A stretch of DNA of 64,000 nucleotides from a bacterium (GTDB taxonomy: Bacteria; Patescibacteriota; CPR2; UBA1875; JAJYID01): assembly GCA_021787535.1 (NCBI GenBank), contig JAJYLR010000001.1, forward strand, positions 19,648-83,647, read 5' to 3'. Under the pieces are notes generated by a model, which saw only the letters and a list, made by a program, of their open reading frames with translations, was not told the DNA's origin and made no database searches. Numbering within the stretch: the stretch's first letter is position 1; the number at the start of each line of letters is the position of its first letter. This document shows positions 4,986-61,756 of this stretch, piece by piece. A program made the position numbers and the translations under genes.

Positions 4986-7085
4986 ATGGAGAAAAAATCT
5001 CTAGGAAAAGTCTCTCTGGAAGCAAAATCAGGAGACAAGAATTTTAAATTTGAAACAGGCAAATTAAACAAATTTGCTAGCGGATCGTGCGTCGTATCAA
5101 GCGGCGACTCTATTGTAATGGCAACGGTCGTGGTCTCGGAAGGAGTGAAGGAAGGTATCGATTACTTCCCTCTTTCAGTTGACTTCCAGGACAAATGGTA
5201 CGCAACCGGCAAGATCTCCGGTTCCAGGTTTGTCAAACGTGAAGGGCGCGGTTCGGAGCTCGGCATTTTGCGTTCCAGAATGATTGACAGGCCGATACGG
5301 CCAATGTTTCCGAAGGGATACATGAACGAAGTGCAGGTTATAGTTACTCCCCTTTCTATGGATTTGGAAATAGACCCTGTTGTTTTGGGCATGAACGCAG
5401 CTTCAGCTTCTCTGATGCTCAGTGGCGCGCCTTTTGAGGGGCCGATAAGTGCTGCCAGAGTTGGCCGGGTTGACGGTAAGCTCATCTTAAACCCAAGCTA
5501 CGAGGAAATGGAAAAATCAGATCTTGATATTTTGGTTGCCGGTACGAAAGAAGCCATTACGATGATTGAGGGTGGCGGAGATCAAGTCTCTGAAGACATT
5601 GTCGCCGAAGCACTCGAGTTTGCCCACAAAGGCATGCAGCCCTTGATTGAGGCGCAGGAAAAACTCATTAAAGAAATGAAGGTTAAAGCGCGTGAGTATG
5701 AACTGAATAAACCCCATGAAGGCGCATATCTTGCCATTACCAAATACCTGGAGGATAAGCTTGGCGAGGCAGTCAGACATCAGGACAAAATGGCTCGAAA
5801 CTTAATTATCAACGAGCTGGAAGACGTGGTTCATGAGCAATTCAAAGAAGAATTTGAAGAAGAGGAAATCTCCCTTGTGTTTGACAAGGTTATCAAAGAA
5901 GAAGTGAGAAAGGTAATACTTGAGGAAGGCATCCGTCCCGATCACAGGAAAATGGACGAAGTCAGGGCGCTGTCTGCTGAAGTCGGGTTACTACCGAGGA
6001 CTCACGGTTCAGGCCTCTTTACCCGTGGCGAAACACAGATTCTTTCCATCACCACACTCGCCTCTCCTTCGAAAGCCCAAATGATAGACTCAATGGATCA
6101 GGATTTCAACAAGCGCTACATCCACCATTACGTTGATACGGGCGCTTCATACGGTGATATCAAGCGGCTTGGCCCGGGCAGACGCGCCATCGGACACGGA
6201 TTTTTGGCTGAAAAGGCGCTTGAGCCGGTATTGCCTAAAGAAACAGACTTCCCTTACACCATTCGCGTTGTCAGTGAAATCTTATCCGAAAATGGCTCAT
6301 CCTCAATGGGTTCGGTTTGCGGTTCATCGCTGGCTCTTATGGATGCGGGCGTGCCTATCAAAGCGGCTGTTGCTGGTGTAGCCATGGGGCTGATGACCGA
6401 AGGCGGCGATCTTTCGAAGAAATACGTCATTTTGACCGACATTCAAGGAGCGGAGGACTTTGCCGGCGACATGGACTTCAAACTTGCCGGCACTAGAGGC
6501 GGCATGACCGCCATCCAGATGGACATCAAGGTCAAAGGTCTCACCCATGCGTTTTTGGTCGAGGTTATTAAGCGCGCCAAGGACGCCAGACTTCAGATCC
6601 TGGACGCTATGGACAAAGCCATTTCTGAGCCAAGAGGCGACCTTTCCGGTTACGCGCCTCGGCTGACTACTCTACACATTAATCCTGAAAAAATTCGCGA
6701 TGTTATCGGAAAAGGCGGGGAAATGATTAATAAAATTATTGCCGAGTGCAATGTCGAGATTGATATTGACGATGATGGAAATGTGGTTATCGCTGCGGTA
6801 AACGGTGAAAATGCCCAGAAAGCCATCGATTGGATTAAGTCAATCACGGCTGAGCCGGAAATTGGCAAAGTTTATAAAGGCAGAGTGGTCAAAATCATGG
6901 ACTTCGGCGCTTTTGTCGAGTTCATGCCAGGTAAGGAAGGCCTGGTTCACATCTCGCAGATTTCCCAGGAAAGGGTAAACAAAGTGACGGATGTGCTGAA
7001 AGAAGGGCAAGCTGTGGATGTGAAGCTGGTTGAGATCGACTCCCAAGGCCGAAATAATCTCTCCATGAAAGCAGTGAAGAAATAA
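4986..7085 (+). CDS. pnp: Polyribonucleotide nucleotidyltransferase (PNPase)
   Basis: Two RNase PH domains (RPIRPMFPKGY motif), a C-terminal KH domain and an S1 domain (GKVYKGRVVKIMDFGAFVEF). Confidence 0.95.
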   Translation: MEKKSLGKVSLEAKSGDKNFKFETGKLNKFASGSCVVSSGDSIVMATVVVSEGVKEGIDYFPLSVDFQDKWYATGKISGSRFVKREGRGSELGILRSRMIDRPIRPMFPKGYMNEVQVIVTPLSMDLEIDPVVLGMNAASASLMLSGAPFEGPISAARVGRVDGKLILNPSYEEMEKSDLDILVAGTKEAITMIEGGGDQVSEDIVAEALEFAHKGMQPLIEAQEKLIKEMKVKAREYELNKPHEGAYLAITKYLEDKLGEAVRHQDKMARNLIINELEDVVHEQFKEEFEEEEISLVFDKVIKEEVRKVILEEGIRPDHRKMDEVRALSAEVGLLPRTHGSGLFTRGETQILSITTLASPSKAQMIDSMDQDFNKRYIHHYVDTGASYGDIKRLGPGRRAIGHGFLAEKALEPVLPKETDFPYTIRVVSEILSENGSSSMGSVCGSSLALMDAGVPIKAAVAGVAMGLMTEGGDLSKKYVILTDIQGAEDFAGDMDFKLAGTRGGMTAIQMDIKVKGLTHAFLVEVIKRAKDARLQILDAMDKAISEPRGDLSGYAPRLTTLHINPEKIRDVIGKGGEMINKIIAECNVEIDIDDDGNVVIAAVNGENAQKAIDWIKSITAEPEIGKVYKGRVVKIMDFGAFVEFMPGKEGLVHISQISQERVNKVTDVLKEGQAVDVKLVEIDSQGRNNLSMKAVKK

Positions 7086-9652: not shown

Positions 9653-9677
9653 GATTCCGGATCAAGTCCGGAATGAC
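9653..9677. repeat. Solo core hairpin of the palindromic element family: gattccgga-tcaag-tccggaatgac
   Basis: Stem 8 bp, CAAG-type loop, GAATGAC terminus. Located in the rnj upstream region. Confidence 0.6.
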
Positions 9678-20246: not shown

Positions 20247-20263
20247 CCTTTTCCTGTCATTCC

Positions 20264-20331
20264 CGCGGAGGCGGGAATCTATATAATAAAAATTCTGGAT
20301 TCCCGCCTCCGCGGGAATGACAATAATGATA
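20264..20331. repeat. Full-length palindromic element, family 2. Its arms are gtcATTCCCGCggagGCGGGAATc and gATTCCCGCctccGCGGGAATgac, and they are exact reverse complements of each other.
   Basis: 68 bp. Each arm is itself a hairpin, so the element can form a cruciform. It abuts the efp start codon. Confidence 0.8.
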
Positions 20332-21136: not shown

Positions 21137-21952
21137 ATGAAAAAGCGAATTGATATTTTATTGGTTGACAAAGGATTTGCTGGAACCAGAACTAAAGCCC
21201 AAGCTATGCTCATGTCGGGCTCTGTATTTATCGGTGGGCAAAGAGTTGACAAAGTCGGGACTTTGGTTGAAGAAACTGCCGAGGTTGAAATTAGAGAAAA
21301 GTTTCCTTACGTCTCTCGCGGGGCGCTAAAAATAGAAAAAGCTTACGAAGAATTTGATTTGAATTTTCAAGATAAGGTTATTTGTGATATAGGTTCGTCA
21401 ACCGGGGGATTTACCGACTTTGCCTTGCAGCACGGGGCTAAGAAGGTTTTTGCCGTCGATGTCGGATACGGCCAGCTGGACCGGAAACTTCGTGAAGATT
21501 CCCGGGTGGTTGTAATGGAGAAGACCAATTTCCGTGACATCGAATCCCGGGACGATTTTTCTAAACGCGTCATTCTGACTTGTCCAGGATCAAAAAATCA
21601 TGTGAAAAATGCAGATTCCGGTCAAGCCAGAATGACGATTGAAAAAATCGATTATTTCGTCTGCGATGTCTCATTTATTTCCTTAAAGAAGATTATTCCG
21701 CAGATTAAAAAAATCGCCGATTATTCCACTGAGTGCATTTTACTCATAAAGCCACAGTTCGAAGTTGGCAAGGAAATCGCCGACAAAACAAAAGGAGTTA
21801 TTAGAGACGAAGAAATCCAAAGAGCGGTTGTTGAGGATATCGCGAAATTTGCGGAGAGTTCAGGATTTAGAGTGCAAGGAATTACAGATTCACCGATAAC
21901 CGGCGCGAAGGGCAATAAGGAATTTTTATTGTGGTTGGCATTTAATCGATAA
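21137..21952 (+). CDS. tlyA: TlyA family rRNA 2'-O-methyltransferase (S4 domain plus FtsJ-like MTase), carrying an in-frame palindromic-element insertion
   Basis: S4 domain N-terminus, SAM motif VICDIGSSTGGFTDFA, and CDVSFISL. A 26-aa inserted segment sits between the SAM fold and DVSFISL. Confidence 0.85.
   Translation: MKKRIDILLVDKGFAGTRTKAQAMLMSGSVFIGGQRVDKVGTLVEETAEVEIREKFPYVSRGALKIEKAYEEFDLNFQDKVICDIGSSTGGFTDFALQHGAKKVFAVDVGYGQLDRKLREDSRVVVMEKTNFRDIESRDDFSKRVILTCPGSKNHVKNADSGQARMTIEKIDYFVCDVSFISLKKIIPQIKKIADYSTECILLIKPQFEVGKEIADKTKGVIRDEEIQRAVVEDIAKFAESSGFRVQGITDSPITGAKGNKEFLLWLAFNR
21568..21637. repeat. Intragenic composite palindromic element (family 1) inserted in-frame in tlyA. It encodes ...[23 protein letters not shown]...
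   Basis: cgtcattctgac...gattccgg-tcaag-ccagaatgacg. Outer 10-nt inverted termini. The 23-nt core matches copies at 26612, 38515 and 23600. Confidence 0.8.
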
Positions 21953-22388: not shown

Positions 22389-22403
22389 AGGTGTTCCTTA
22401 AAC

Positions 22404-22490
22404 ATTAAACTTCAAGACCATGGCGCCGCCGTCTTTCACAACATAATCTTTTCCTTCGAGGCGGACTTTGCCGGCCGCTTTAATGTCTTT
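22404..22490 (-). pseudogene. Duplicated, slightly degenerate copy of the ychF 3' end (last ~29 codons, [30 protein letters not shown])
   Basis: About 75/85 nt identical to 23205-23289 (the true ychF C-terminus). In frame, with its own stop. Confidence 0.75.
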
Positions 22491-22498
22491 CTTTACAA

Positions 22499-23089
22499 TT
22501 AATCCTGAGACACTCCAGAGATTTCTTGCGCTTTCTTAATAATAAACCGGAGGAAGGCGATAAAGAGTGCAAAAAGACCGCCTTTTTCTTTGCTTTCTAT
22601 TTGTTTTTTGACTGCCTCGGGGCTGCCGTTTGCCATGAACTGAATAAGTTCGGCCATAGCTTCATTTTGAGCTATTTGGGATTCGATTAATGCGAGAATC
22701 TCTTCACGCTGGTTTGCGGCGATGTTATCAAAATTTTCCTGAAGTTGCGCGTCGATTTTCCCTAGCATTTCGCTAAATCCTTCAGATGTTAATTCTGTAC
22801 TTTCAATTGCTTCCGTGGGCTCATCAGTGTCATCAGTTTCTATTCCCAGCTGCTGACGCAGTTTATTTATTTCGGCTAATTCTTCCGGTGGGGATTCTGC
22901 CTCGGCTCGCTGTTCTTGGTCTGTCTGCCCCTCTTTTGTTGTCTCAGTTAATTCTTCCGGCGAAAGTTCTTGTAAATTATCAGGTTTATCTACTGTACCT
23001 TCGGGGCCTTCCGATACTGTTTCACTTAGTTCTGGTTGAGGTTGTGCCATTTCCCCGGAGTCAGGAAACTGTGGTATTTCTTCATTCAT
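22499..23089 (-). CDS. Hypothetical highly acidic protein (D/E/Q/T-rich N-terminal ~150 aa) with a C-terminal hydrophobic helix
   Basis: Compositional features only. Lies between ychF and the duplicated ychF 3' fragment. Confidence 0.5.
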   Translation of the reverse strand: MNEEIPQFPDSGEMAQPQPELSETVSEGPEGTVDKPDNLQELSPEELTETTKEGQTDQEQRAEAESPPEELAEINKLRQQLGIETDDTDEPTEAIESTELTSEGFSEMLGKIDAQLQENFDNIAANQREEILALIESQIAQNEAMAELIQFMANGSPEAVKKQIESKEKGGLFALFIAFLRFIIKKAQEISGVSQD

Positions 23090-23193
23090 GCTGCCATTCC
23101 TTTTTTATTTGAACTTATAATACACCCTATAAATATCTTAACACAAGTCCCAGATTCTCTAGAATTCATTGCCAATAGCGGATTTTTTCTCTA

Positions 23194-24348
23194 TCATACA
23201 TTAAACTTAAAAATCATCACATCGCCGTCTTTCACAACATAATCTTTCCCTTCGAGGCGGACTTTGCCGGCCGCTTTGGCGCCTGACCATCCTTTATTTT
23301 CTACCAAATCTTTCCAATCCACAGTCTCGGCTTTGATGAAGCCCTTTTCAAAATCGGTATGAATGATGCCGGCGGCTTGAGGCGCCTTATCCCCTTTGTG
23401 AATTGTCCATGCTTTAATCTCTTTCTCTCCTGCTGTAAAGTAAGTTTTGAGTCCGAGCAGATCATATCCTTTCTTGATTAACCGATTTAATCCCGTCTCG
23501 GATTGTCCGAGCTCTGCCAAATATTCTTTCTTTTCTTCTTCGGAAAGCTCATTGAGCTCAGACTCGATTTTTGCCGAAATAATAACATAATCTTTCTCCG
23601 TCATTCTGGCTTGACCAGAATCTGTCATTTTTGAATTTTTTTCATTAGGATTTGATTGGAAATTGCCTGCTTGCCTGCGAGGCAGGGAAATTGGAAATTG
23701 AAAATTCTTTGTGAGGTGTTCTTCATCGACATTAAATATGTAAATATGAGGTTTCAAGGTAAGCAAGTTTAGATCCTTAATATGCCCGATTTCTTTTTCT
23801 GTGAGACCCAGTTCGCGAGCAGTTTTTCCTTTCTCGAGTTCGGTCTGAATTTTTTGGACTAAAGCTAAGGTTTCCTTAAGTTTTGGATCACCTTTTATAT
23901 CTTTCGTTAATTTTGCAGTCCTTTTCCCTGCCGTTTCGAGATCGGCCAGGATAAGCTCCATCTTGATGGTCTCCATGTCGGATGTCGGGTTTATTTCTCC
24001 GGTGACGTGGGTAATATTGGCGTCGGTAAATACGCGCACCACCTCGGCGATGGCGTCGCACTGCCGGATATTGGCCAGGAATTTATTGCCGAGCCCTTCC
24101 CCTTCCGCCGCTCCTTTGACTATCCCGGCAATATCTACGAACTCCACGATGGCCGGAACGATTTTTTGGGTCGGAATGACCCCAGCCATTTTCGTGAGCC
24201 GCTCATCCGGCACCTCGACGATTCCAACATTGGGATCAATGGTGCAAAACGGGTAATTCGAAGCTTCAGCTTTATTCTGCGTCAAAGCGTTAAAAAGCGT
24301 GCTTTTGCCAACGTTTGGCAGTCCGACTATTCCGATAGATAAACCCAT
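23194..24348 (-). CDS. ychF: Ribosome-binding ATPase YchF (Obg-family GTPase), carrying an in-frame palindromic-element insertion. The annotated start is the internal [20 protein letters not shown]; the longer ORF to 24534 is probably not translated.
   Basis: G1 [22 protein letters not shown]-terminal TGS domain ...[19 protein letters not shown] ~38-aa insert ([38 protein letters not shown]) precedes the helical domain. Confidence 0.85.
23594..23712. repeat. Intragenic palindromic element (family 1 core plus a second imperfect palindrome) inserted in-frame in ychF
   Basis: gtcattctggcttgaccagaatc is the family-1 core in reverse orientation. It is followed by cctgcttgcctgcgaggcagg, an imperfect palindrome. 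Confidence 0.75.
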
Positions 24349-25395: not shown

Positions 25396-25502
25396 CTCTT
25401 GTCATTCCGAGCGACTCTCCGCACTTAAATTCTTAAGTGCGGGGTAAGCCGAGGAATCTTTTGCCGTGACTGGATTCCCGCCTTCGCGGGAATGACAGCG
25501 TG
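25396..25502. repeat. Composite cluster of palindromic elements: a gtcattccgagcg... arm, an internal ccgcacttaa/ttaagtgcgg hairpin, and a family-2 hairpin gattcccgccttcgcgggaatgac
   Basis: GTCATTC and GAATGAC termini plus an ATTCCCGC-N4-GCGGGAAT hairpin identical in design to 20306-20331. Confidence 0.7.
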
Positions 25503-26404: not shown

Positions 26405-26560
26405 CATAGTTGCGTTTAGCGTTAAAGCGCCAAAGGGCGTAGAGACTAGTCTCTACGCCCTTTAAACTTTTGAGTTCAGCAACTTTGGTCTAATGAGTGA
26501 TTTGTTGCTAATCATTTTAATAAACAAAGAGACCGTCAAAACTAGTTTAATTTGTCATTC

Positions 26561-26634
26561 TGGCGACGACAGGAGGCCAGAATCTCATGGTTTTAAACAC
26601 AATAATTGATTCTGGGCAAGCCAGAATGACATCC
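26561..26634. repeat. Full-length family-1 palindromic element: reverse-orientation core (gtcattctggcgacgacaggaggccagaatc), a 20-nt spacer, then forward core (gattctgggcaagccagaatgac)
   Basis: The forward core is identical 23/23 to the intragenic pilD copy at 38515-38537. Confidence 0.8.
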
Positions 26635-34323: not shown

Positions 34324-34352
34324 AAATATTAATTTTTAATTATCAAATTCCA

Positions 34353-34742
34353 ATGATCAATCAAATCTCAAGTACCAATAAGGAAGAAACAAAATATGAT
34401 TTAGTTGAGAGGACTGCAGTATTTGGTGAATCTATTCTTGACTTTGTTGGGGGTGTCGAAAGAAATTCTATCAATAACCCATTAATAAGCCAGGTTGTTA
34501 GGTCTGGAACAAGTGTGGGGGCAAATTATTGTGAGGCAAATGAGGCGAATTCCAAAAAGGATTTTGTTCATAAGGTTAGCATCGCAAAAAAAGAAGCAAA
34601 AGAAACTATACACTGGCTCCGCATGATTATAAAAGTAAACTCTGCTCTCAGAGAAAGAGCTGAAATTTTGCAAAAGGAATCTCACGAGCTGGTTTTGATA
34701 TTTTCTGCTATAATGAGAAAAAGTACGGGTAGGGAAGTTTAA
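34353..34742 (+). CDS. Four-helix-bundle protein (23S rRNA intervening-sequence protein family, TIGR02436-like)
   Basis: SGTSVGANYCEANEANSKKDFVHKVSIAKKEAKETIHWL matches the family core motif. Confidence 0.7.
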   Translation: MINQISSTNKEETKYDLVERTAVFGESILDFVGGVERNSINNPLISQVVRSGTSVGANYCEANEANSKKDFVHKVSIAKKEAKETIHWLRMIIKVNSALRERAEILQKESHELVLIFSAIMRKSTGREV

Positions 34743-34860
34743 AATTTATTATTTAGCATTTGATTGAACATTGAGTTTTGAACATTGGAATTTTAATTAT
34801 AAGTCTTTGAATTTTCAACTGATGGTATTAAAATAAGAGTTATAAAGGAGGGCTTTACTA

Positions 34861-37281: not shown

Positions 37282-37358
37282 CGTCATTCTGGCTTGGCCA
37301 GAATCAATGCGGCTTCAATGTAACGGCCCTGACAGATTCTGGATGAACCAGAATGACG
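37282..37358. repeat. Full-length family-1 palindromic element: cgtcattctgg...reverse core...36-nt spacer...forward core gattctgg-atgaa-ccagaatgacg
   Basis: Perfect 11-nt outer inverted termini. Between pilC and the pilin gene. Confidence 0.8.
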
Positions 37359-37477
37359 ACGAAGCTATACAACTTATAAAAATTGGTTCGATACTTGATA
37401 AATTCGTTAAAGTTTAGAATATTGAAATTTATGATTTGTAATTTATTTCGGATTTCGGATTTAATATTTAGGATTTG

Positions 37478-38175: not shown

Positions 38176-39033
38176 TTGTTATATAATATTTTTATGTATT
38201 TATATGTCATTACTCTCGTTATCTTTATCTTATTAGGCCTTATTACCGGCAGTTTTTTGAATGTTCTCATATACAGATTAGAAAACAAGAAAAGAAAAAC
38301 TCTTTTCGGACGGTCTTTTTGTCCTTCGTGCGGGCAACAAATTGCCTGGTATGACAATATCCCTATTATTTCCTGGCTGGTTTTGGGTGGAAAGTGCAGG
38401 AAATGCGGAAAGCAAATCTCATCTCAGTATCCGCTAGTAGAACTAGCGACAGGTTTTTTGTTTGCAGCGATCGGCCTGAAATTTTTGTTTCTGGGCGCTT
38501 TACACATAGGTATTGATTCTGGGCAAGCCAGAATGACGGCACCGGACATTTTAAATTTATTATTTTGGCTGTTTTTTACGGCGGGGTTGATCGTAATCTT
38601 TGTATATGATTTCAAGCACCAAATCATTCCTAATGAGATAATTTATACTCTTTTGGCAGCCGGGCTAGTATTTGTTGGGGTTGACACGCTATTTTTTGGC
38701 GGCTATCAGTATTTAATTGATCATTTGCTCTCTGGTCTTCTCGCCGGAGGATTTTTCTATGCTCTGGCCGCTGTTTCAAAGGGTAAATGGATGGGAGGAG
38801 GCGACATTAAGCTAGTTGCCTTTATGGGGTTGGTATTAGGTTGGCAGGGTCTGCTTGCAGCTCTTTACTTTTCCTTTGTTTTGGGGGCGGTTTTTGGACT
38901 GAGCGCGCTGGTTGCACACAAAAAAGCTCTCAGTTCGCGCATACCTTTCGGGCCTTTTCTGGTAGCCGGTACGTTCGTCGGCCTTTTTTTCGGCGAGCAA
39001 ATGGTTAGCTTTTATGTTAGAATGTTTTTGTAA
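38176..39033 (+). CDS. pilD: Prepilin peptidase PilD (A24 family) carrying an in-frame 23-nt repeat-core insertion
   Basis: GSFLNVLIYRL, tetracysteine CPSCGQQ...CRKCGK, catalytic Asp regions. The insert encodes [10 protein letters not shown]. Confidence 0.85.
   Translation: MLYNIFMYLYVITLVIFILLGLITGSFLNVLIYRLENKKRKTLFGRSFCPSCGQQIAWYDNIPIISWLVLGGKCRKCGKQISSQYPLVELATGFLFAAIGLKFLFLGALHIGIDSGQARMTAPDILNLLFWLFFTAGLIVIFVYDFKHQIIPNEIIYTLLAAGLVFVGVDTLFFGGYQYLIDHLLSGLLAGGFFYALAAVSKGKWMGGGDIKLVAFMGLVLGWQGLLAALYFSFVLGAVFGLSALVAHKKALSSRIPFGPFLVAGTFVGLFFGEQMVSFYVRMFL
38515..38537. repeat. Solo 23-nt family-1 core hairpin gattctgg-gcaag-ccagaatgac inserted in-frame in pilD
   Basis: Identical 23/23 to intergenic 26612-26634. 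Encodes D-S-G-Q-A-R-M-T. Confidence 0.8.
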
Positions 39034-42360: not shown

Positions 42361-43323
42361 TTATACTTGACCTTGACTATGAAATTTTTGATGGATTTCT
42401 TTAAGCCGCGTGTTTGTTATGTGAGTATAAATCTGTGTAGTAGTGATGGAAGAGTGGCCGAGCATGGCTTGGACGGAACGGATATCGGCGCCGTTGATTA
42501 AAAGATCGGTGGCGAAAGAGTGGCGTAGCATATGGGGTGTCACTTTTTTGGTTATTCCGGCTAAACGGGTATATTTTGAGACAATGCGCTGAATGCTTCT
42601 AGGTGTAAGCCGCATATATTCACCTTCATCCAAGCCGTCTTGCATACCTGAGAAATGAATAAAAAGCGGCGCGGCATTATCGGTTCTTTTGGTTAGATAT
42701 CTTTTGAGTTTTTTAATAGCGCTATCTGAAAGAAAAACTACCCTATCCTTACCGCCTTTGCCGCGAACATTGAACTCTCCTCTTTCCAGATTGACTTGCT
42801 CGCGATTTAAGCCGGCAAGTTCGCTCACTCTGAGTCCCGTGGAAAAAAGTGTCTCCAGAATTGCTGAATCCCTGAGAATAATCACTTCTTTTTTTGAAGG
42901 AAATTTCTCAGGAGTAGCGAGTAAATCTTCAACTTCCTCGATTTCCAAGAATTCTACCTGTTTTCTTTTCATTTCCCCGAGCTCAATCTTTTCAGCAGCC
43001 AGAGATTTAATATCTCTTTTGGCCAAGTATTTTAAAAATGCACGCAGAGCAATGATGTGATATGTTTGAGTGATTTTAGCCAGATTACCGCCAAGATCTG
43101 TACTTAACCGATTTAAATAGAGCCGGTATTTTCTGATAAGATCGCTTGTAATTTGTTCGGGCTTAAGTTCACGGCTGCGCCCCTCTTCGGCAAAGTCAAG
43201 AAAACGCCCCAGATAATGTTCGTAGTTTCTGATGGTGAGTTCAGAGTGGTTTTTCTCTATCTCGCAGTATTCTAAAAAGTCGCGAACCAGGTCATTTACA
43301 GTCATACTTACATTGTACGACAC
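42361..43323 (-). CDS. xerD: Tyrosine site-specific recombinase XerC/XerD family
   Basis: C-terminal catalytic region HMLRHSFATDLLINGADIRSVQAMLGHSSITTTQIYTH with the catalytic Tyr. N-terminal SAM-like domain. Confidence 0.85.
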   Translation of the reverse strand: MSYNVSMTVNDLVRDFLEYCEIEKNHSELTIRNYEHYLGRFLDFAEEGRSRELKPEQITSDLIRKYRLYLNRLSTDLGGNLAKITQTYHIIALRAFLKYLAKRDIKSLAAEKIELGEMKRKQVEFLEIEEVEDLLATPEKFPSKKEVIILRDSAILETLFSTGLRVSELAGLNREQVNLERGEFNVRGKGGKDRVVFLSDSAIKKLKRYLTKRTDNAAPLFIHFSGMQDGLDEGEYMRLTPRSIQRIVSKYTRLAGITKKVTPHMLRHSFATDLLINGADIRSVQAMLGHSSITTTQIYTHITNTRLKEIHQKFHSQGQV

Positions 43324-43335
43324 TTTTTTCGACTT

Positions 43336-43749
43336 GTCATTCCGACCGCCACTATGCTAATGAAAAGTGGAGGAATCCCTTACTCGTAGTATAATCTACT
43401 TATGGCCAAAAATTATATTTTCCATGTTCATATATTAGCTAGTGAGAGTGGTACTCTATACATTGGTGTCACCAATGACCTAGTTAGAAGAATATATCAA
43501 CACAGGAGCGATTTAATAGAAGGATTTAGCAAAAAGTATCAATGCCATAAATTAGTTTATTATGAAGAAACATCAGATGTTGAAAGCGCAATTAAAAGAG
43601 AAAAACAAATTAAAAATTGGAGCAGAAAGAAAAAAGAAGGTTTGATCAAAACCAAAAACCCAACCTGGAGAGATTTATCAGGTGATTTATAAAATATTAA
43701 TACAAAGGGATTCCTCCGCTCTACTTTTACGGAAGTTGGTCGGAATGAC
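43336..43749. mobile_element. Family-3 palindromic element carrying a GIY-YIG nuclease gene in its central loop. Outer arms are gtcattccgacc / ggtcggaatgac; inner arms are ggaggaatccc / gggattcctcc.
   Basis: Both arm pairs are exact reverse complements. An empty counterpart lies at 50893-50980. Confidence 0.75.
43402..43692 (+). CDS. Small stand-alone GIY-YIG nuclease family protein (UPF0213/YhbQ-like)
   Basis: YIFHVHILASESGTLYIGVTNDLVRRIYQHR (GIY...YIG) with conserved Arg and Glu downstream. Confidence 0.8.
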   Translation: MAKNYIFHVHILASESGTLYIGVTNDLVRRIYQHRSDLIEGFSKKYQCHKLVYYEETSDVESAIKREKQIKNWSRKKKEGLIKTKNPTWRDLSGDL

Positions 43750-43761
43750 AAAGAGAGCTGT

Positions 43762-45195
43762 ATGAAAGCGGTTTTTACAAGCGTTATTTTATTAGCCGTT
43801 ATGGCCGGCATATTTCTCGCTCCTTATTTTGACGTTTCTATACTGAGCGTGGTTGCTCTTTTTGGCATTTTCTTTCTCCTTAGCTTGTCAGTCGTTCCTA
43901 AAAAATGGCTCTGGCTTTTCATGATAGTCATTAGTTTTCTCTTTCTCGGTATTTTTCGTTTTATCCAAGTACAAAACGCCATTTACAACCTCTCTTATCC
44001 AACTGATCAGGAGGTAAAGCTCCAAGGCCAGGTTGTTGAACCGCCGGAAGAAACGGATAAATCGGTGAAAGCCGTTTTGAAAGATGAGGCAAGGGGCGGT
44101 AAAATTATTTTGATTTTAAAACCCTTCACTAAGGTGAAATATGGCGACCGGCTGTCAGTGAGCGGCAAAGTTAGCATTCCGGCTCAAGAGTATCAAAATT
44201 CTCTTTTAGTAAAAGGTATTGTTTATGAGATGGCCTTTCCGCAAATAGAGCGGGCCGGACCGGGCAAAATGGATATTTCAATGAAAATTCAAAATGGCCT
44301 TTACTCTCTTAGAAACCGTTTTGAGGAGAGTATAAACAGCATATTTCCCGAACCGGAGGCATCATTTCTGGCCGGATTGCTTTTAGGGGTAAAAAGAAAT
44401 CTTCCTGCCTGGCTTACTCAAGATCTCAAAGCCAGCGGCACTACCCATTTGATTGCCCTTTCAGGGTTTAATATTACTGTCATCATTGAGGCATTAAGGA
44501 TAATCTTTAGGCGGCGCAGCGCCAAACTAAGTTTTTATATCCCATTGCTTGTTATTTTTGCTTTTGTGGTTATGACCGGTTCTTCGTCTTCGGTCGTCAG
44601 AGCCGGCATTATGGGAGCAATGATGCTTCTTACTTATCGGGTAGGACGGCAATCTTCAGCTGTCATGGCAATAGTTATTACGGCAGCTATCATGGTTTTC
44701 GCCAATCCTTTTATTTTGCGTTTTGATGCCGGCTTTCAGCTCTCTTTCGCCGCCTTTATCGGGATCATTTATTTTGCGCCTATGATTAGTATGTTTTTGC
44801 CTCTTAAACATGAGTTTGCAAAAGAAATGCTGGCAATGACCTTAGGCGCGCAGATCATGGCTTATCCTTTAATTCTCTATTATTTTGGCACCTTTTCTAT
44901 AGTCTCATCCGCTGCCAACTTAGTCGTTCTGCCTTTTATTCCATTTGTGATGCTGCTTGGTTTTGTGACGGCAGCTGTAGGAATGGTCTGGCAAGGACTG
45001 GGTTATGCTATGTCATTCACCGCCCTTTTTGCCTTAAAGGCAGTGATCGAAACAATCCATTTCTTTGCCCTTCTCCCTTTATCTTCCATAAGCGGTATCA
45101 GCTTTTCCGCATTCAACGCCACTCTCTATTATATAATAATTTTGGAATTGGTTTTTATCTGCAAGAGGCGTCTTGTAAGGAGGCGTCTTGCCTAA
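43762..45195 (+). CDS. comEC: ComEC/Rec2 DNA internalisation channel, membrane (competence) domain only
   Basis: Multiple TM helices, N-terminal OB-like region, competence motif region ASGTTHLIALSGFNITVI. Confidence 0.8.
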   Translation: MKAVFTSVILLAVMAGIFLAPYFDVSILSVVALFGIFFLLSLSVVPKKWLWLFMIVISFLFLGIFRFIQVQNAIYNLSYPTDQEVKLQGQVVEPPEETDKSVKAVLKDEARGGKIILILKPFTKVKYGDRLSVSGKVSIPAQEYQNSLLVKGIVYEMAFPQIERAGPGKMDISMKIQNGLYSLRNRFEESINSIFPEPEASFLAGLLLGVKRNLPAWLTQDLKASGTTHLIALSGFNITVIIEALRIIFRRRSAKLSFYIPLLVIFAFVVMTGSSSSVVRAGIMGAMMLLTYRVGRQSSAVMAIVITAAIMVFANPFILRFDAGFQLSFAAFIGIIYFAPMISMFLPLKHEFAKEMLAMTLGAQIMAYPLILYYFGTFSIVSSAANLVVLPFIPFVMLLGFVTAAVGMVWQGLGYAMSFTALFALKAVIETIHFFALLPLSSISGISFSAFNATLYYIIILELVFICKRRLVRRRLA

Positions 45196-54534: not shown

Positions 54535-54990
54535 ATGAAAATAATAACAAGAAGCTCAGAAGAAACAGTTGACCTAGGAGAAAAATTAGGTAAATCCCTG
54601 AAAGGCGGAGAAGTTCTTGCCCTTTACGGTGACCTTGGCGGCGGTAAAACCCAGTTTACAAAAGGTATAGCCAAAGGACTTGGCATTAAAGATAATATTC
54701 TCTCGCCCACTTTCACCATTCGCCGTGAGTATAAAGGCAAGAAGTTAAATCTTCTGCATTATGATTTCTACCGATTTGAATTGCCGGACCGGGAGCTTAT
54801 TGAAAGCATGGAAGAAGGCATTAATCCTGACAATGTGACGGTGATAGAATGGGCGGAAAGGGTTGAGAAACATTTGCCCAATGATGCAGTTAAAATCAAT
54901 TTCAAATACATTTCGGAAAACGAGAGGGAAATAGAAGTTATGCCCGGCAGCCGGAATTTAGAAAATAAGTTTAGTAAGCTGTCATTCTGA
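54535..54990 (+). CDS. tsaE: tRNA threonylcarbamoyladenosine biosynthesis protein TsaE (YjeE)
   Basis: P-loop LALYGDLGGGKTQFTKGIAKGLG, SPTFTI, HYDFYRFE motifs. Confidence 0.85.
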   Translation: MKIITRSSEETVDLGEKLGKSLKGGEVLALYGDLGGGKTQFTKGIAKGLGIKDNILSPTFTIRREYKGKKLNLLHYDFYRFELPDRELIESMEEGINPDNVTVIEWAERVEKHLPNDAVKINFKYISENEREIEVMPGSRNLENKFSKLSF

Positions 54991-55010
54991 GGAACGAAGA
55001 ATCTCATGAG
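54981..55010 (+). repeat. 30-nt repeat gtcattctgaggaacgaagaatctcatgag, left copy. It supplies the ATG of the GIY-YIG gene.
   Basis: Identical to 55347-55376. Hairpin ATTCT-gaggaacga-AGAAT with GTCATTC-family ends. Confidence 0.8.
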
Positions 55011-55329
55011 TTATTATGTCTATATCTTAACAAATAGAATAAACAAAGTTCTTTATACCGGTATGACCAATAATTTAGAAAGAAGGATTTTCGAGCACAA
55101 AAATAAATTGGTTAAAGGGTTTACTGAGAAGTATAATTTGAATAAATTGGTATATTTTGAAGAATTTCCGGCGGCAAAAGAAGCGATCGAAAATGAGAAG
55201 AGAATTAAGGGCTGGGTAAGAAGAAAAAAGATTGCATTGATTGAGGCGAAAAATAAGAATTGGATTGATTTATCGAAAGAAAATAGATCCTTTGTCGTTC
55301 CTCCTCAGGATGACAATAACCAAGGATGA
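55006..55329 (+). CDS. Small stand-alone GIY-YIG nuclease family protein (UPF0213/YhbQ-like) inserted between tsaE and tsaB
   Basis: YYVYILTNRINKVLYTGMTNNLERRIFEHK. Confidence 0.8.
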   Translation: MSYYVYILTNRINKVLYTGMTNNLERRIFEHKNKLVKGFTEKYNLNKLVYFEEFPAAKEAIENEKRIKGWVRRKKIALIEAKNKNWIDLSKENRSFVVPPQDDNNQG

Positions 55330-55346
55330 AATATAACTCGACAACA

Positions 55347-55376
55347 GTCATTCTGAGGAACGAAGAATCTCATGAG
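55347..55376 (+). repeat. 30-nt repeat gtcattctgaggaacgaagaatctcatgag, right copy (direct). It supplies the ATG of tsaB.
   Basis: Exact direct repeat of 54981-55010. Confidence 0.8.
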
Positions 55377-55830
55377 AATAATTATGAAAAACACATTAGT
55401 AATAGACACTTCAGATAAGGTTGCCAGGTTTGGTTTGTTTCAGGACGACAAACTGGTTGATACTTTAGAATGGGAGGCGCATCGGGAGCTTTCCAAAACC
55501 TTTTATGCCAAATTGGATGAGTTACTTGAGCGAAATAAACTGAGCTACCAGGATTTGGATTCAATTATTGTGGTTTGCGGCCCCGGATCATTTACCGGTC
55601 TTCGTATCGGAACTGTAATCGTAAATGCATTTGCCTATGCTTTGGAAATCGAAACGGCTGGTGTGATTCAGCCTCCTTGTCATTCCGGACTAGATCCGGA
55701 ATCTAAACCCCTCAAAAAACTAACATTAGAAGAAATTTATAACGCCGGAAAAAAAGACCTGAAAAAGGGCCGGACTCTCGAGCCATTTTATGGCCGCGAA
55801 CCAAATATAACAGCCAAGAAGAAAAAATGA
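55372..55830 (+). CDS. tsaB: tRNA threonylcarbamoyladenosine biosynthesis protein TsaB (YeaZ), short form (152 aa)
   Basis: LVIDTS...VARFGLF, VVCGPGSFTGLRIGTVIVNAFAYA are typical of the TsaB N-terminal domain. Confidence 0.75.
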   Translation: MRIIMKNTLVIDTSDKVARFGLFQDDKLVDTLEWEAHRELSKTFYAKLDELLERNKLSYQDLDSIIVVCGPGSFTGLRIGTVIVNAFAYALEIETAGVIQPPCHSGLDPESKPLKKLTLEEIYNAGKKDLKKGRTLEPFYGREPNITAKKKK

Positions 55831-56654: not shown

Positions 56655-56697
56655 GGGATTCCTCCGCTCGCTTTTCATAGAGTTGGTCGGAATGACA
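56655..56697. repeat. Solo right half of a family-3 palindromic element (gggattcctcc...ggtcggaatgac) upstream of rny
   Basis: Matches the right arm of the GIY-YIG element at 43707-43749. Confidence 0.65.
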
Positions 56698-59811: not shown

Positions 59812-59888
59812 CGGGGTGTGGCGCAGTTGGCTAGCGCGCCTGCTTTGGGAGCAGGAGGCCGGAGGTTCGAGTCCTCTCACCCCGACCA
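59812..59888 (+). tRNA. tRNA-Pro (anticodon UGG)
   Basis: Folded by hand. C1:G72 acceptor cggggtg/caccccg, D-arm gcgc/gcgc, anticodon stem cctgc/gcagg with loop tttggga, T-arm ggagg-ttcgagt-cctct, discriminator A73, encoded CCA. Confidence 0.8.
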
Positions 59889-61409
59889 GATGAGACATTT
59901 TGAAAATTCAGGGGCGTTTTGTTGTACGCTCGCCCAACCTTCAGTAGTATTCGTTTCGCAAAAAGCCCTATATTTCGGAATTAAATCAAAGGGGCGGACA
60001 AATTCAAATTCAGCTTTTTGGGCAAGCAAACGGCGGTTCGTTCCAATTTTTTCCACCAATGACTTTATTTCATAAAAATCATCGGACAAAGCAAGTTTTT
60101 CGGCGCGGTGAGCGGTTTTTATCCATTCCCGCAAAGGTTCGATCCAACTGTTTCCCTTTCGCCCAAAATCAGACTCTCTTTTGCTAAGGTCTGTTTTTAT
60201 TTTTATAAGTTCATCTTTTTTTAAAAGATAAGTTTCTTTTTCAATACTTCCGTCTAAAAAAGCATTGACCAGTTTATCAAGTTTCGTTTCCGTCTCCTTG
60301 ATTTTCTTCTTGAAGCTTTGGGCGAAAGATTGCGCCGACCGGGCGTTGTCTTTTTCCCACACGTCAACTTGAGCGTTCATTTTTTCGGCCCAGCCGCCGC
60401 AAATAGCGATATTTTGAAGCCGTGATTTCAATTGATCAGCGAGTAAGTCCTCGCGTACATATCCTTGGCTGCATTTGCCGCGCTTTTTGGTACAGCGGTA
60501 ATAACGGTAAGTGCCGCCGTGTCCATGGGCAAACTGGGCGGTAATAGCGCCGCCGCACTCGCTGCAAGTTAAAAGCCCGACAAACGGGAAGTTATGCTTC
60601 CTTTTGCTTTTTCGAGGTCTTGCTCGCTGTTTTAGAACTTTTTGGACGGCTTCAAAAACGCTTAAGGAAACAATTGCCGGAAAACCGCCTTCATAGGTTT
60701 CACCATTGTGTACAATCAAACCGAGATAAACTTTGTTGGTGAGCATTCTCTGTAGCTTTGCCTTGCAAAATGGTTTTCCGGTTCTTCCAACCACGCCCCA
60801 AAAACTCAGGCGCCGGCCCAAACTTTCCAAAGTGTGTTGGCCATGGGCAAATTCCTCAAACGTTTTAACTACAAGTCTTGATTTTACAGGATCGGGTTCA
60901 ATATTTCTCGTTTTCGGATTATTCACATAGCCGAAAGGCGCAAGTGTCGGCCATTCGCCGCGCCTGATTTTTTGTCTGATCCCGCGCTTTACGTTCTCCG
61001 ACAAATTGTCGGAATAATACTTTGATTGGCCAAAGGCGACTTGAAGCATAAAGAGCCCTTGCGGAGTCGGCTCAAACCAAAAAGTGGGAAAGTTTAAAGA
61101 AACGATCTTGCCGATGTCAATACAATAAATTATTTGTCCGCCATCAACGGAATTTCTGGCCAAACGATCAGGGTGCCAAGCAATCAAGCCGATCGGTTCT
61201 TTGCTCTCGTGGACTTTGCCCATCATTTCATTAAAAACCTTCCGGCCCGGTTTCTTGGCGCTTTTAGATTCAATAAAGGTTTCCGCAATCTCTATATTTT
61301 CCCGTTTGGCAAATTCCGCCAACTCCGTAAGCTGCGCTTCAATAGACATCACTTGTCTTTCTTCATCTTCGGTGGATTTACGGGCGTAGAGAAAAAATCT
61401 TGTTTTCAT
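59877..61409 (-). CDS. Large serine recombinase (resolvase/invertase catalytic domain, recombinase domain, zinc-ribbon/coiled-coil), integrase-type
   Basis: N-terminus YARKSTEDEERQVMSIEAQ (catalytic Ser region). DRLARN. Recombinase domain. C-terminal Cys cluster CSECGG...C..C. Confidence 0.85.
   Translation of the reverse strand: MKTRFFLYARKSTEDEERQVMSIEAQLTELAEFAKRENIEIAETFIESKSAKKPGRKVFNEMMGKVHESKEPIGLIAWHPDRLARNSVDGGQIIYCIDIGKIVSLNFPTFWFEPTPQGLFMLQVAFGQSKYYSDNLSENVKRGIRQKIRRGEWPTLAPFGYVNNPKTRNIEPDPVKSRLVVKTFEEFAHGQHTLESLGRRLSFWGVVGRTGKPFCKAKLQRMLTNKVYLGLIVHNGETYEGGFPAIVSLSVFEAVQKVLKQRARPRKSKRKHNFPFVGLLTCSECGGAITAQFAHGHGGTYRYYRCTKKRGKCSQGYVREDLLADQLKSRLQNIAICGGWAEKMNAQVDVWEKDNARSAQSFAQSFKKKIKETETKLDKLVNAFLDGSIEKETYLLKKDELIKIKTDLSKRESDFGRKGNSWIEPLREWIKTAHRAEKLALSDDFYEIKSLVEKIGTNRRLLAQKAEFEFVRPFDLIPKYRAFCETNTTEGWASVQQNAPEFSKCLIWSG
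59884..60040. repeat. Left 157-bp inverted repeat (IR-L). It starts at the last 5 nt of tRNA-Pro and covers the 3' end (C-terminal ~50 codons) of the serine recombinase gene.
   Basis: Reverse complement matches 61544-61700 (first ~90 nt identical, ~92% overall). Confidence 0.85.
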
Positions 61410-61543
61410 AATGTTTCCTCCTTAATTTATATGTCTCCTTTGGCCTAAAAGCGTGGGATTAAAACTTGCTTTGTATTTTTGCTTTTGGCAAAAACGGAAA
61501 AAATCGGATACAAATTTCATTTGTGAATTTGCTTCGCAACTTT

Positions 61544-61700
61544 CGAACCGCCGTTTGCTTTCCCGAAAAGCCGAGTTTGAATTTGTCCGCCCCTTTGATT
61601 TAATTCCTAAATACAGGGTTTTTTGCGAAACGAATACTACTGAAGGTTGGGCGAGCGTACAACAAAACGCCCCTGAATTTTCAAAATGTCTCATCTGGTC
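61544..61700. repeat. Right 157-bp inverted repeat (IR-R), an inverted copy of the recombinase 3' end. It ends with gtctcatctggtc, which mirrors the tRNA-Pro junction.
   Basis: Seen directly. ORFs 59818-60075 and 61422-61694 translate to the same peptide on opposite strands. Confidence 0.85.
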
Positions 61701-61756
61701 GCAATTGCTGAACGTTGCTCGAACCCATTTCGAACAGGGAGAGGAATACTAGGGGC

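Follow-up and report, generated by a model that had tools for sequence, protein, structure and literature searches.

Within the 64-kb window (the whole stretch of DNA analysed here, from a member of the Patescibacteria), three conserved genes carry the same short palindromic sequence. Pfam identifies their products as a TlyA-type protein (S4 and FtsJ domains), YchF and a prepilin peptidase of family A24 (PilD), and, as the initial annotation had proposed, the peptide DSGQARMT is encoded in-frame in all three. The sequence involved is a 23-nt hairpin core, GATTCYGGNCAAGCCAGAATGAC, of which 5 exact and at least 3 degenerate copies occur in the 64 kb, where none would be expected. A pattern search allowing up to 3 mismatches returned 7 matches (0.00 expected; Table 1), bearing out the sharing of the core between intergenic sites and tlyA, ychF and pilD; a further copy with an extended loop, at 26554-26584, brings the total to eight. 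The copies first listed do exist, but some of their positions needed revision: the tlyA copy was 1 nt off, and two intergenic copies given as 26612-26634 and 37343-37365 (4-8 nt off) in fact lie at 26608-26630 and 37335-37357. The exact copy at 37283-37305 had been overlooked. There is indeed a hairpin at 9653-9677 (25 nt), but its stem is of a different class (CCGGA). The pilD copy is identical to the intergenic copy at 26608-26630 over 23/23 positions, as described, and the identity runs on to 26/26. At gathering thresholds, Rfam recovered two tRNAs only and no RNA family at the repeats.

Table 1. Palindromic repeats and hairpin-associated genes in the 64-kb window (HH, tag-outward inverted dimer).
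Feature	Position	Strand	Tag strand	Core match	Details
Single intergenic hairpin, CCGGA class	9653-9677	-			GTCATTCCGGACTTGATCCGGAATC
Intergenic HH dimer, NTS-like CCCGC class	20256-20321				GTCATTCCCGCGGAGGCGGGAATC twice, perfect complementarity; -33.8 kcal/mol, z -11.6
HH dimer in tlyA	21569-21636				-14.8 kcal/mol, z -3.8
Left arm of tlyA dimer	21569-21591	-	+	2 mismatches	CGTCATTCTGACTTGTCCAGGATC, degenerate, read as VILTCPGS
Right arm of tlyA dimer	21614-21636	+	-	exact	coding strand GATTCCGGTCAAGCCAGAATGAC = DSGQARMT, TlyA residues 160-167
Single hairpin in ychF (gene on -)	23600-23622	-	+	exact	coding strand DSGQARMT, YchF residues 242-249 of 383-aa form
Mini-palindrome in ychF insert	23665-23685	-			CTGCCTCGCAGGCAAGCAGGC, 21 nt, read as LPRRQAG
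Intergenic hetero-dimer	25401-25497				long hairpin 25401-25458 and inverted copy 25470-25497, TGTCATTCCCGCGAAGGCGGGAATCCAG
Intergenic HH dimer, CTGG class	26554-26630				arms 26554-26584 (long loop) and 26608-26630; -18.7 kcal/mol, z -5.6
Right arm of the above	26608-26630	+		exact	
Intergenic HH dimer, CTGG class	37283-37357				-19.2 kcal/mol, z -4.8
Left arm of the above	37283-37305	-		exact	
Right arm of the above	37335-37357	+		3 mismatches	
Single hairpin in pilD (gene on +)	38515-38537	+	-	exact	coding strand DSGQARMT, PilD residues 108-115
Hairpin-ssn-hairpin unit	43336-43749	+			hairpin 43336-43377 (+), GIY-YIG gene 43402-43692 (96 aa), inverted hairpin 43709-43749
Second ssn unit, between tsaE and tsaB	54981-55369	+			hairpin 54981-55003, GIY-YIG gene 55006-55329 (107 aa)
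CCGGA-class hairpin in tsaB-like ORF 55372-55830	55679-55703	+			read as CHSGLDPES
Solo long hairpin	56657-56696	-			class of the flanks of the first ssn gene

The window contains a larger set of hairpins, in which the 23-nt core represents a single stem class. Those of the form GTCATTC-stem-loop-stem'-GAATC number 17 in the 64 kb against 0.23 expected; our counts rest on this strict pattern, as a generic finder (GTCAT plus stem) is too permissive for a census (22 matches versus a shuffle mean of 11). The hairpins bear CGTC or TGTC tags and mostly form tag-outward inverted dimers, this orientation being found in 5/5 dimers (Table 1), with spacers of 14-29 nt. In the class to which the core belongs (the CTGG class), the tag is CGTC in six of eight copies and TGTC in the other two, the stem is ATTCTGG(C)/(G)CCAGAAT, 7-8 bp long, and the loop measures 3-5 nt. 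Roughly a quarter of the copies in the window are intragenic. One arm of the hetero-dimer (25470-25497) equals the Neisseria NTS consensus save for base 1. The dimer at 37283-37357 sits downstream of a T2SSF (pilC-like) gene, and the solo long hairpin is immediately upstream of the RNase Y gene. These other stem classes were missing from the initial annotation, as were a fourth host gene (tsaB-like, its hairpin lying just past residue 98, where homology to TsaB structures ends) and two hairpin-flanked GIY-YIG genes of the Ssn type.

For both of these genes, GIY-YIG is the sole Pfam family above the curated cutoff. The second is accompanied by a degenerate inverted hairpin (55286-55314) and by a second, identical 30-nt copy of its left hairpin (55347-55376). 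Compared with an NTS-flanked 94-aa ORF of N. gonorrhoeae (L127, 389-673, from a gonococcal chromosome filed as a plasmid in PLSDB), which its length, fold and NTS flanks suggest to be an orthologue of SsnA, the 96-aa protein is 57% identical (E 3e-34) and the 107-aa protein 43% identical (E 3e-26). Homologues of Ssn have been defined by E < 1e-10 to Neisseria SsnA (PMC11893778), and both proteins fall well below this value while having the single-domain architecture and length of about 94 aa of the family (cd10448-type). NCBIfam gave no family-level name for the two ORFs, and a PDB sequence search with them recovered only the distant UPF0213 structures 1ZG2 and 1YWL. The window also holds a type IV pilus cluster and comEC, the latter adjoining an ssn unit. 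The presence of two hairpin-flanked GIY-YIG genes points to the cognate protein of the hairpins. Both window genes are flanked by other stem classes, and no ssn gene flanked by CTGG hairpins was found in the 64 kb, which counts against the explanation that we favour below; outside the window, in a related genome (L072, 1642-1984), a GIY-YIG gene has the exact CTGG hairpin to its left and to its right (GTCATTCTGGCTTGGCCAGAATC, ssn, inverted copy), and in L080 and L106 this hairpin accompanies an ssn gene on one side.

The composite described in tlyA, two inverted cores around a spacer, is present at 21569-21636; its right arm has no stable fold by itself (-1.6 kcal/mol, z about 0), whereas the dimer as a whole folds. 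The palindrome reported to adjoin the ychF core was likewise recovered, within an AT-rich stretch of YchF (NFQFPIS..NFQSNPN) and missing from relatives. Orthologue alignments give both empty and filled sites for all three genes, so that the inserts are lineage-specific, as had been predicted: empty sites are seen in orthologues P0010-P0019 for TlyA, P0129/130/132/134/137 for YchF and P0244/246/248/251-253 for PilD. Relative to these, TlyA has about 29 additional codons and YchF 22 to 25, in keeping with the 18-30 first estimated, and PilD about 4 to 11. The same YchF and PilD sites hold other classes of CGTC-tagged hairpin in relatives, one YchF gene (L123) having a perfect NTS dimer at the insert site. 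The inserts are stop-free and in-frame in more than 10 diverged orthologues, and 9/9 independent intragenic copies use one of the 5 open frames. On sequence comparison, the inserts are thus DNA repeat elements read in-frame, and insertions with respect to orthologues; they are presumably translated in cells. Structure models support the placement of the inserts in loops that had been made by eye: TlyA residues 151-165 (between strands 124-127 and 173-176) and PilD residues 104-112 (between helices 78-104 and 116-142) both have pLDDT <50, the DSGQARMT of PilD falling in the loop that joins two membrane helices, and alignments to 3HP7 and 1JAL are interrupted precisely where the inserts lie.

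It is hardly credible that the inserts are assembly artefacts, or that they are removed before or after translation in the manner of introns or inteins. In favour of this it can only be said that hairpins may lead to misassembly, but the inserts recur in independent assemblies and samples: the TlyA protein is identical on three contigs (ENA, Logan and a 0.2-1 Mb block) and orthologous inserts are seen in unrelated samples. Intron or intein features and Rfam matches are lacking, and in diverged orthologues the length of the insert is in every case divisible by 3, with no stops. The same peptide in unrelated proteins, along with the strict frame bias, could instead be taken to mean that DSGQARMT is a selected motif or module with a function at the protein level, the palindromy of its DNA being incidental. 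We regard this as very improbable, as identical DNA is intergenic (26608-26630 = 38515-38537), the same DNA borders ssn genes, models show the inserts as disordered, orthologues without insert are common and the hosts are unrelated (by inspection, a methyltransferase, an ATPase, a membrane peptidase, a glycosyltransferase, ArgRS-like and TruB-like proteins, and others).

The initial annotation placed the repeats in a different sequence family from the Rickettsia palindromic elements (RPEs). This is not supported: the CGTC/TGTC tag, the stem starting with A-T, the short loop and the tag-outward dimers are those of the CGTC-tagged REPs, a superfamily that includes Neisseria dRS3 and R. conorii RPE-4 and RPE-6 (PMC3733652). 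In that superfamily, a terminal unpaired CGTC tag (with TGTC and CCTC variants) is followed by a stem of 8-9 bp, A-T first, and a loop of 4-5 nt, the 3-nt tail is mostly CCA, and HH dimers (tags outside) with spacers of 20-100 bp predominate; no associated transposase or enzyme was found (PMC3733652). The tag is as described in 8/8 CTGG-class copies and the dimers are of the HH type in 5/5 cases; stem and loop also agree, the CTGG stem being one bp short of the description when N is unpaired. The tails following GAATC, in contrast, are AAT, TGT, TCA or AAA. As the source says 'most' for CCA, this mismatch counts against families CGTC-1 to CGTC-4 rather than against the superfamily. A degenerate string, HGTCWYN(0-2)YYVSBRHN(0-5)WNVSBRGN(0-2)RNCYNB, a heuristic drawn from 29 genomes, has been used to search for Ssn-related motifs, or SRMs (PMC11893778); in the window it matches 25470-25497 only and none of the CTGG-class copies. 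The flanking of ssn genes by hairpins is as in SRMs at L072 (both sides) and at L080 and L106 (one side). Judged by sequence, then, the repeats belong to a described class, the CGTC-tagged REPs (Di Nocera 2013), or Ssn-related motifs (Chenal 2025). The exact core stem was found at at least 119 loci in Nitrospirota, Acidobacteriaceae, Rhodanobacteraceae, Bacteroidetes and many CPR groups, and is therefore not lineage-restricted. The core thus occurs in Nitrospirota, Acidobacteriota, Gammaproteobacteria and many CPR lineages.

Other classes of small repeat were considered. Palindromic units, inverted dimers that fold into one long hairpin and the absence of target-site duplication are also what classical REP/REPIN elements mobilized by RAYTs (IS200/IS605-type Y1 transposases) would show, but such an origin is highly unlikely here: the tag is CGTC/TGTC and not GTAG, the genes flanked by hairpins are of the GIY-YIG type, Pfam annotation of the genes at window positions 11-64 kb shows no Y1_Tnp, and CGTC REPs were found without a transposase (PMC3733652). 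MITEs have terminal inverted repeats and a target-site duplication and derive from an IS with a DDE-type transposase; here, neither the five dimers nor the first ssn unit is bordered by direct repeats, and no related IS was seen. CRISPR-like, integron attC-like and DNA-uptake-sequence readings were rejected as well, the units being inverted rather than direct, attC R/L boxes being absent and the conserved part being the hairpin base rather than a linear word.

We consider it very probable that the core is a stem class of the CGTC-REP/SRM superfamily, of which several classes reside together in this genome as singles, dimers and hairpin-ssn-hairpin units, and that it has spread as non-autonomous derivatives. 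The ssn units would encode a single-domain GIY-YIG nuclease of roughly 100 aa, of the Ssn family, whose characterised members come from Neisseria, N. elongata, N. wadsworthii and Wolbachia (PMC11893778). By analogy with these enzymes, we infer that each Ssn would bind its cognate hairpin as single-stranded DNA only, on the CGTC-tagged strand only, and cut a few nucleotides 5' of the tag, so that a tag-outward dimer would be cut once at either extremity, the two cuts falling on opposite strands. Short dimers and singles would then be non-autonomous derivatives of ssn-carrying units, as REPs and REPINs are to RAYT genes. Some copies would have landed in the coding sequence of a compact genome, the survivors being those that kept the frame, had no stops, encoded a tolerable peptide and fell in a permissive loop; these would be translated into 8 aa (single) or roughly 25-30 aa (dimer). 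Besides the SRM string, which the CTGG class misses, and its AAT/TGT tail in place of CCA, this explanation has to accommodate tags that face inward at the gonococcal locus. Strand-transfer activity is, to our knowledge, not known for GIY-YIG nucleases, and we know of no demonstrated transposition of an SRM.

A further point against this explanation is that, at synonymous sites, conservation is higher in the hairpins than in the genes that carry them, which would not be predicted if the intragenic copies were purely neutral passengers. A reading compatible with the same family assignment is that intragenic hairpins are retained as working DNA or RNA signals, either as Ssn sites shaping the recombination of incoming homologous single-stranded DNA, as NTS and SsnA act on transformation in Neisseria (PMC11893778), or as mRNA structures. 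At third codon positions, identity reaches 42/56 within the hairpin, compared with 0.39-0.46 elsewhere in the genes; base pairing in the L122 tlyA gene survives through compensatory or wobble substitutions; genomes that share 68% PilD identity have the same PilD hairpin at 23/23 positions; and the cleavable CGTC strand is the template strand in 9/9 intragenic single copies; the pilus genes and the proximity of comEC to an ssn unit also fit. This conservation, however, is equally explicable by re-insertion at hotspots or gene conversion between copies, the same sites hold other hairpin classes in relatives and many close relatives have no insert at all, the tlyA right arm no longer folds alone, and other classes are oppositely oriented (e.g. 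CHSGLDPES in tsaB). We therefore hold retention as signals to be unlikely. More doubtful still is the specific proposal that, in Patescibacteria, hairpins in conserved genes are kept by selection, in one orientation and frame, as sites through which the resident Ssn nucleases would act on the incoming or exposed single-stranded DNA of core genes; if true, organisms dependent on DNA uptake would carry within their genes a means of controlling recombination by natural transformation.

The feature is real, but it lies within an already described class and is no new category of biology. What appears to be new is the host phylum, a stem class missed by the published motif, the frame bias (9/9) and the conservation of the hairpins at synonymous sites; nothing relevant emerged from full-text searches for REPs in Patescibacteria or for the peptides that derive from the repeats. 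The recently defined Ssn nuclease/hairpin system is thus extended to the Candidate Phyla Radiation, and, because the published search motif misses a stem class, censuses based on it undercount. Where genomes are very compact, an appreciable fraction of the hairpins would be translated inside housekeeping proteins. Peptides like DSRLRGND should be annotated as repeat-derived, not as protein motifs, and in CPR phylogenetics and structure prediction the inserts show up as lineage-specific segments. The frame bias and synonymous-site conservation offer a handle on whether the hairpins are selected.

Several known systems invite comparison. As in REP/REPIN-RAYT systems, short hairpins and inverted doublets, without target-site duplication, seem to be the non-autonomous partners of a small, hairpin-flanked gene of single-copy type; unlike them, the gene is of the GIY-YIG type, whereas RAYT systems, of which none was seen here, have a GTAG tag and an HUH/Y1 fold. 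The likeness to RPEs noted initially was well founded: in both cases palindromic repeats interrupt conserved genes without disturbing the frame, fall at permissive sites on the protein surface and are apparently translated. RPE-1 and similar elements are longer (about 100-150 bp) and unrelated in sequence. The host lineage differs from Rickettsia, as had been supposed, being Patescibacteria, and the link to RPE-4 and RPE-6 is that stated in PMC3733652. The CGTC REPs share in-frame intragenic singles and dimers encoding 8 to about 30 aa (PMC3733652), but the stem here is 7-8 rather than 8-9 bp, the tail AAT or TGT rather than CCA, and the repeats could not be placed in any of the named families CGTC-1 to CGTC-4. 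From the Ssn/SRM system (PMC11893778) the present repeats differ in their patescibacterial host, absent from the text of that paper, in a CTGG/CTTGN stem class that escapes the degenerate string, in an intragenic share of about a quarter against 2% in N. meningitidis, and in tags that face outward around ssn rather than inward as at the gonococcal ssnA-like locus. With Neisseria dRS3/NTS and SsnA (PMC11893778) they have in common the CGTCAT tag, the ATTC..GAAT stem base, hairpin-flanked single-domain GIY-YIG genes, many copies per genome and possibly several enzyme/hairpin pairs.

A pattern search of the 64-kb window for the core, GATTCYGGNCAAGCCAGAATGAC, allowing up to three mismatches, returned seven matches, against 0.00 expected from shuffled sequences; five are exact and two degenerate, and an eighth hairpin of the same CTGG class has a longer loop (see table). 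As the initial annotation had proposed, the same core lies both between genes and in frame within three genes, the ORFs of which are assigned by Pfam to a TlyA-type methyltransferase (S4 and FtsJ domains), YchF and a prepilin peptidase (PilD). The peptide DSGQARMT is found in all three, with the GATTC...GAATGAC strand always being the coding strand. The composite of two inverted cores described in tlyA is likewise present as a 68-nt inverted pair (21569-21636) of which the tlyA copy forms the right arm, and the pilD copy does match an intergenic copy (26608-26630) over 23 nt of 23, an identity that extends to 26 nt. The positions first assigned are shifted by 1 nt for the tlyA copy and by 4-8 nt for two intergenic copies, the exact copy at 37283-37305 had been omitted, and the hairpin at 9653-9677, originally counted as a core copy, belongs to a different stem class.

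Hairpins, genes and other features of the window
Feature	Position	Strand	Remarks
Exact core	21614-21636	+	Right arm of tlyA inverted pair
Exact core	23600-23622	-	In ychF
Exact core	26608-26630	+	Intergenic
Exact core	37283-37305	-	Intergenic
Exact core	38515-38537	+	In pilD
Degenerate core	21569-21591		Left arm of tlyA pair
Degenerate core	37335-37357
Eighth CTGG copy	26554-26584		Longer loop
First ssn ORF	43402-43692		96 aa; inverted hairpins 43336-43377 and 43709-43749 on either side
Second ssn ORF	55006-55329		107 aa; inverted hairpins 54981-55003 and 55286-55314
Copies of ychF 3' end	22402-22481, 23198-23277		80 nt, 90% identical, direct
Acidic ORF	22499-23089	-	196 aa
XerC/D-type tyrosine recombinase gene	42361-43323	-
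comEC	43762-45195	+
Large serine recombinase gene	59877-61409	-	510 aa; Resolvase, Recombinase, Zn_ribbon
Inverted repeats	59883-60040, 61544-61701		158 nt, 96% complementary
tRNA gene	59812-59885
23S_rRNA_IVP gene	34353-34742		129 aa; four-helix bundle
Inverted repeats	34331-34366, 34758-34793		36 nt, imperfect

Searching the window for GTCATTC-N(4-30)-GAATC yielded 17 hairpins against 0.23 expected, with stems of at least five kinds, each internally complementary (CTGG/CCAG, CCCGC/GCGGG, CCGGA/TCCGG, a long CCGACC...GGAGG type and CTGAGGAACGAAG); additional degenerate hairpins lie at 21569, 25401 and 55286. Every CTGG copy in the window opens with a CGTC or TGTC tag. Five inverted dimers have their tags outside and unrelated spacers of 14-29 nt. 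Folded as single-stranded DNA, single units reach about -5.6 to -6.8 kcal/mol and dimers form one long hairpin (-14.8 to -33.8 kcal/mol, z -3.8 to -11.6); the tlyA right arm by itself no longer folds.

TlyA, YchF and PilD all have close homologues in Patescibacteria, and alignment of these orthologues bears out the proposal that the inserts are lineage-specific, as empty and filled forms occur for each protein. The TlyA insert (S[RW][DE]DFSKR-VIL.CPGS...) is common to the closest relatives (62-75% identity), homologues P0010-P0019 and P0105 having the short form; compared as DNA, the empty site (TNFRDI-AELPETIDY) is 29 codons shorter than the filled one. The YchF segment from the NVDE motif to ISAKIE is 47 aa long here versus 22-25 aa in orthologues with an empty site. 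In relatives, different REP-derived peptides occupy this position, including a perfect dimer of the Neisseria repeat (NTS) type in the related genome L123 (VIPAQAGIQ...DSRLRGND). The 8-aa PilD insert is common to homologues P0242, P0243 and P0249, dimer-expanded in six others and absent in nine. Presence varies gene by gene among related genomes: the 172-kb contig of L122 has the TlyA insert and empty YchF and PilD sites. The insertion sites behave either as hotspots or as the sole permissive positions.

The inserts had been placed in surface loops by eye, and structure predictions and alignments support a loop location. In the TlyA AlphaFold2 model (mean pLDDT 86), residues 151-165, between core strands 124-127 and 173-176, fall below 50, as do residues 104-112 of the PilD model (mean pLDDT 86), where helices 78-104 and 116-142 are joined by the loop predicted to hold the insert. 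The alignment of TlyA with 3HP7 is interrupted at query 139-175 against 146-156, and that of YchF with 1JAL at query 214-254 against 216-234, right after the NVDE motif. A CCGGA-class hairpin encoding CHSGLDPES in a tsaB-like ORF, just past the end of the homology to TsaB structures, is a candidate insertion in a fourth host gene.

In two different genes of relatives, YchF of L125 (DSG[PSFTESYGTGR]QARMT) and PilD homologue P0261 (DSG[PSFAQGFGTGW]QARMT), the CTGG hairpin loop is itself interrupted, exactly within the loop, by a further segment of about 30 nt, which suggests another small element nested there. Beside the YchF hairpin, in the window (23640-23700) and several relatives (alignment A2), lies an AT-rich low-complexity stretch encoding NFQFPISNFQSNPN; the window stretch is similar to AT-rich sequence between other genes of the window. 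The ychF 3' end is itself duplicated, the spare copy lying downstream at a distance of about 0.8 kb, with coding potential for a relic YchF C-terminus. Between the copies is an acidic ORF without Pfam match; in the relatives L122 and L126, ychF directly follows the neighbouring gene and there is no such ORF. The arrangement (22402-23277) looks like an insertion into the ychF end with regeneration of the gene end.

The CTTGN hairpin is open in five of its six frames. The nine independent single copies found within genes among the matches listed (three in the window, six elsewhere) nonetheless all use the DSGQARMT frame, the outside copies lying in unrelated proteins of L007, L009, L010, L018, L044 and L052 (by inspection, a glycosyltransferase, a restriction/modification enzyme and ArgRS-, MiaB-, ligase- and TruB-like proteins). 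Were open frames equally likely, the chance of eight copies agreeing with the first would be about 3e-6. In the DSGQARMT orientation, the cleavable CGTC strand serves as template; hairpins of other stem classes are found in either orientation. The frame is also maintained across diverged orthologues. In seven orthologue pairs, which all include the window sequence and are hence not independent, third-codon-position identity is 42/56 in the eight hairpin codons versus 0.39-0.46 in the rest of the gene, and in L122 pairing is retained by a double change (ATCCTGG/CCAGGAT). Frame bias and synonymous-site conservation go beyond 'tolerated junk', though re-insertion or gene conversion could be an alternative source of the synonymous-site pattern.

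In the two hairpin-flanked ssn ORFs of the window, no Pfam family other than GIY-YIG exceeds its curated cutoff. A tblastn search of PLSDB matched two chromosomes of gonococci that are filed there as plasmids; at the matching locus lies an ORF of 94 aa with canonical CGTCATTCCCGC..GCGGGAATC repeats on its flanks, to which the first and second window ORFs are 57% (E 3e-34) and 43% (E 3e-26) identical. SsnA is a 94-aa single-domain GIY-YIG protein, encoded between NTS repeats (CGTCATTCCCGCGMAVGCGGGAATCYRG), that binds and cuts the tagged strand only, as ssDNA only, upstream of the repeat; the Ssn family is widespread in bacteria and its cognate 'Ssn-related motifs' (SRMs) are diverse (Chenal et al. 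2025, PMC11893778). The gonococcal ORF and its hairpin flanks fit this account. The degenerate SRM string of PMC11893778 has a sole match in the window, 25470-25497, which is the NTS consensus save the first base; the CTGG class escapes the string.

Scanning one genome per GTDB species for the core stem, GTCATTCTGG-N5-CCAGAATC, located it at 119 loci at least, those listed belonging to Nitrospirota, Nitrospinota, Thermodesulfovibrionia, Acidobacteriaceae/Granulicella, Rhodanobacteraceae, Bacteroidetes and many CPR groups (Levyi-, Davies-, Gottesman-, Curtiss-, Howlett-, Berkel- and Peribacteria). Two loop types dominate among the matches listed: CTTGN, that of this window, and CGMAG, the Acidobacteria and Rhodanobacteraceae type, to which a conserved tail is attached. 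In L072, a relative having an 84%-identical segment in common with the window, GTCATTCTGGCTTGGCCAGAATC is followed by a GIY-YIG gene (44% identity to the window's) and then GATTCTGGCCAAGCCAGAATGAC, and in L080 and L106 the core hairpin adjoins an ssn gene; the core hairpin is therefore a flank of Ssn-type genes in related bacteria.

Two direct copies of the left hairpin of the second ssn unit (GTCATTCTGAGGAACGAAGAATCTCATGAG, 30 nt, 100% identical, at 54981 and 55347) lie on either side of that unit, the ATG inside the two repeats (54981-55376) being the start codon of ssn and tsaB, respectively. The arrangement would be consistent with insertion, perhaps recent, at a hairpin already present between tsaE and tsaB, or with recombination through it. 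The first unit neighbours a tyrosine recombinase gene and comEC, and a full type IV pilus cluster is also present in the window, a setting that is perhaps relevant because Neisseria SsnA modulates transformation. L123 carries two further GIY-YIG genes within 6 kb (702-965 and 5704-5991), one between recA and recX and the other directly upstream of tlyA, so ssn-type genes appear numerous and variably placed in the lineage.

Each Ssn would recognise its own hairpin as ssDNA and cut 5' of the tag. For dimers with outward tags and for hairpin-ssn-hairpin units, the cuts would fall at both outer ends, on opposite strands. Short units would be non-autonomous derivatives, and the genic copies that survive would be only those that passed selection for reading frame, peptide and position. 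GIY-YIG enzymes have no known DNA-joining activity, and no Y1 transposase is annotated in the window from 11 to 64 kb.

The window also holds a segment (59812-61701) with a large serine recombinase gene, bounded by inverted repeats; the 3' end of the gene overlaps the left arm, which starts within a tRNA gene, and the segment could represent an integrated or invertible element. A '23S_rRNA_IVP' gene, bracketed by inverted repeats, separates the pilus cluster's two T2SSE ATPase genes.

Neither PMC11893778 nor PMC3733652 describes such repeats in Patescibacteria, a class of stem that the published search motif does not cover, a high proportion of copies within genes (about 5 of about 21 copies in the window, versus 2% reported for N. 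meningitidis in PMC11893778) or the frame and synonymous-site signals, and full-text searches of the literature collection used did not find them either. CGTC-tagged REPs have a CGTC/TGTC tag, A-T pairs first in the stem and a 4-5-nt loop, mostly form 'HH' dimers (tags outside), and have been equated with Neisseria dRS3 and R. conorii RPE-4 and RPE-6; singles and dimers lying in frame within genes and encoding 20-30 aa were catalogued, and no associated transposase was found (Di Nocera et al. 2013, PMC3733652). The likeness to Rickettsia palindromic elements (RPEs) noted initially was apt, but a separate sequence family is not supported, the core being widespread in its exact form and part of a superfamily equated in PMC3733652 with RPE-4 and RPE-6. 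The window repeats agree with CGTC REPs in tag, stem, loop and dimer features, whereas their 3-nt tail is AAT/TGT rather than CCA, which places them within the superfamily but outside its four named families. Both the superfamily to which these elements belong and its cognate enzyme family are already known.
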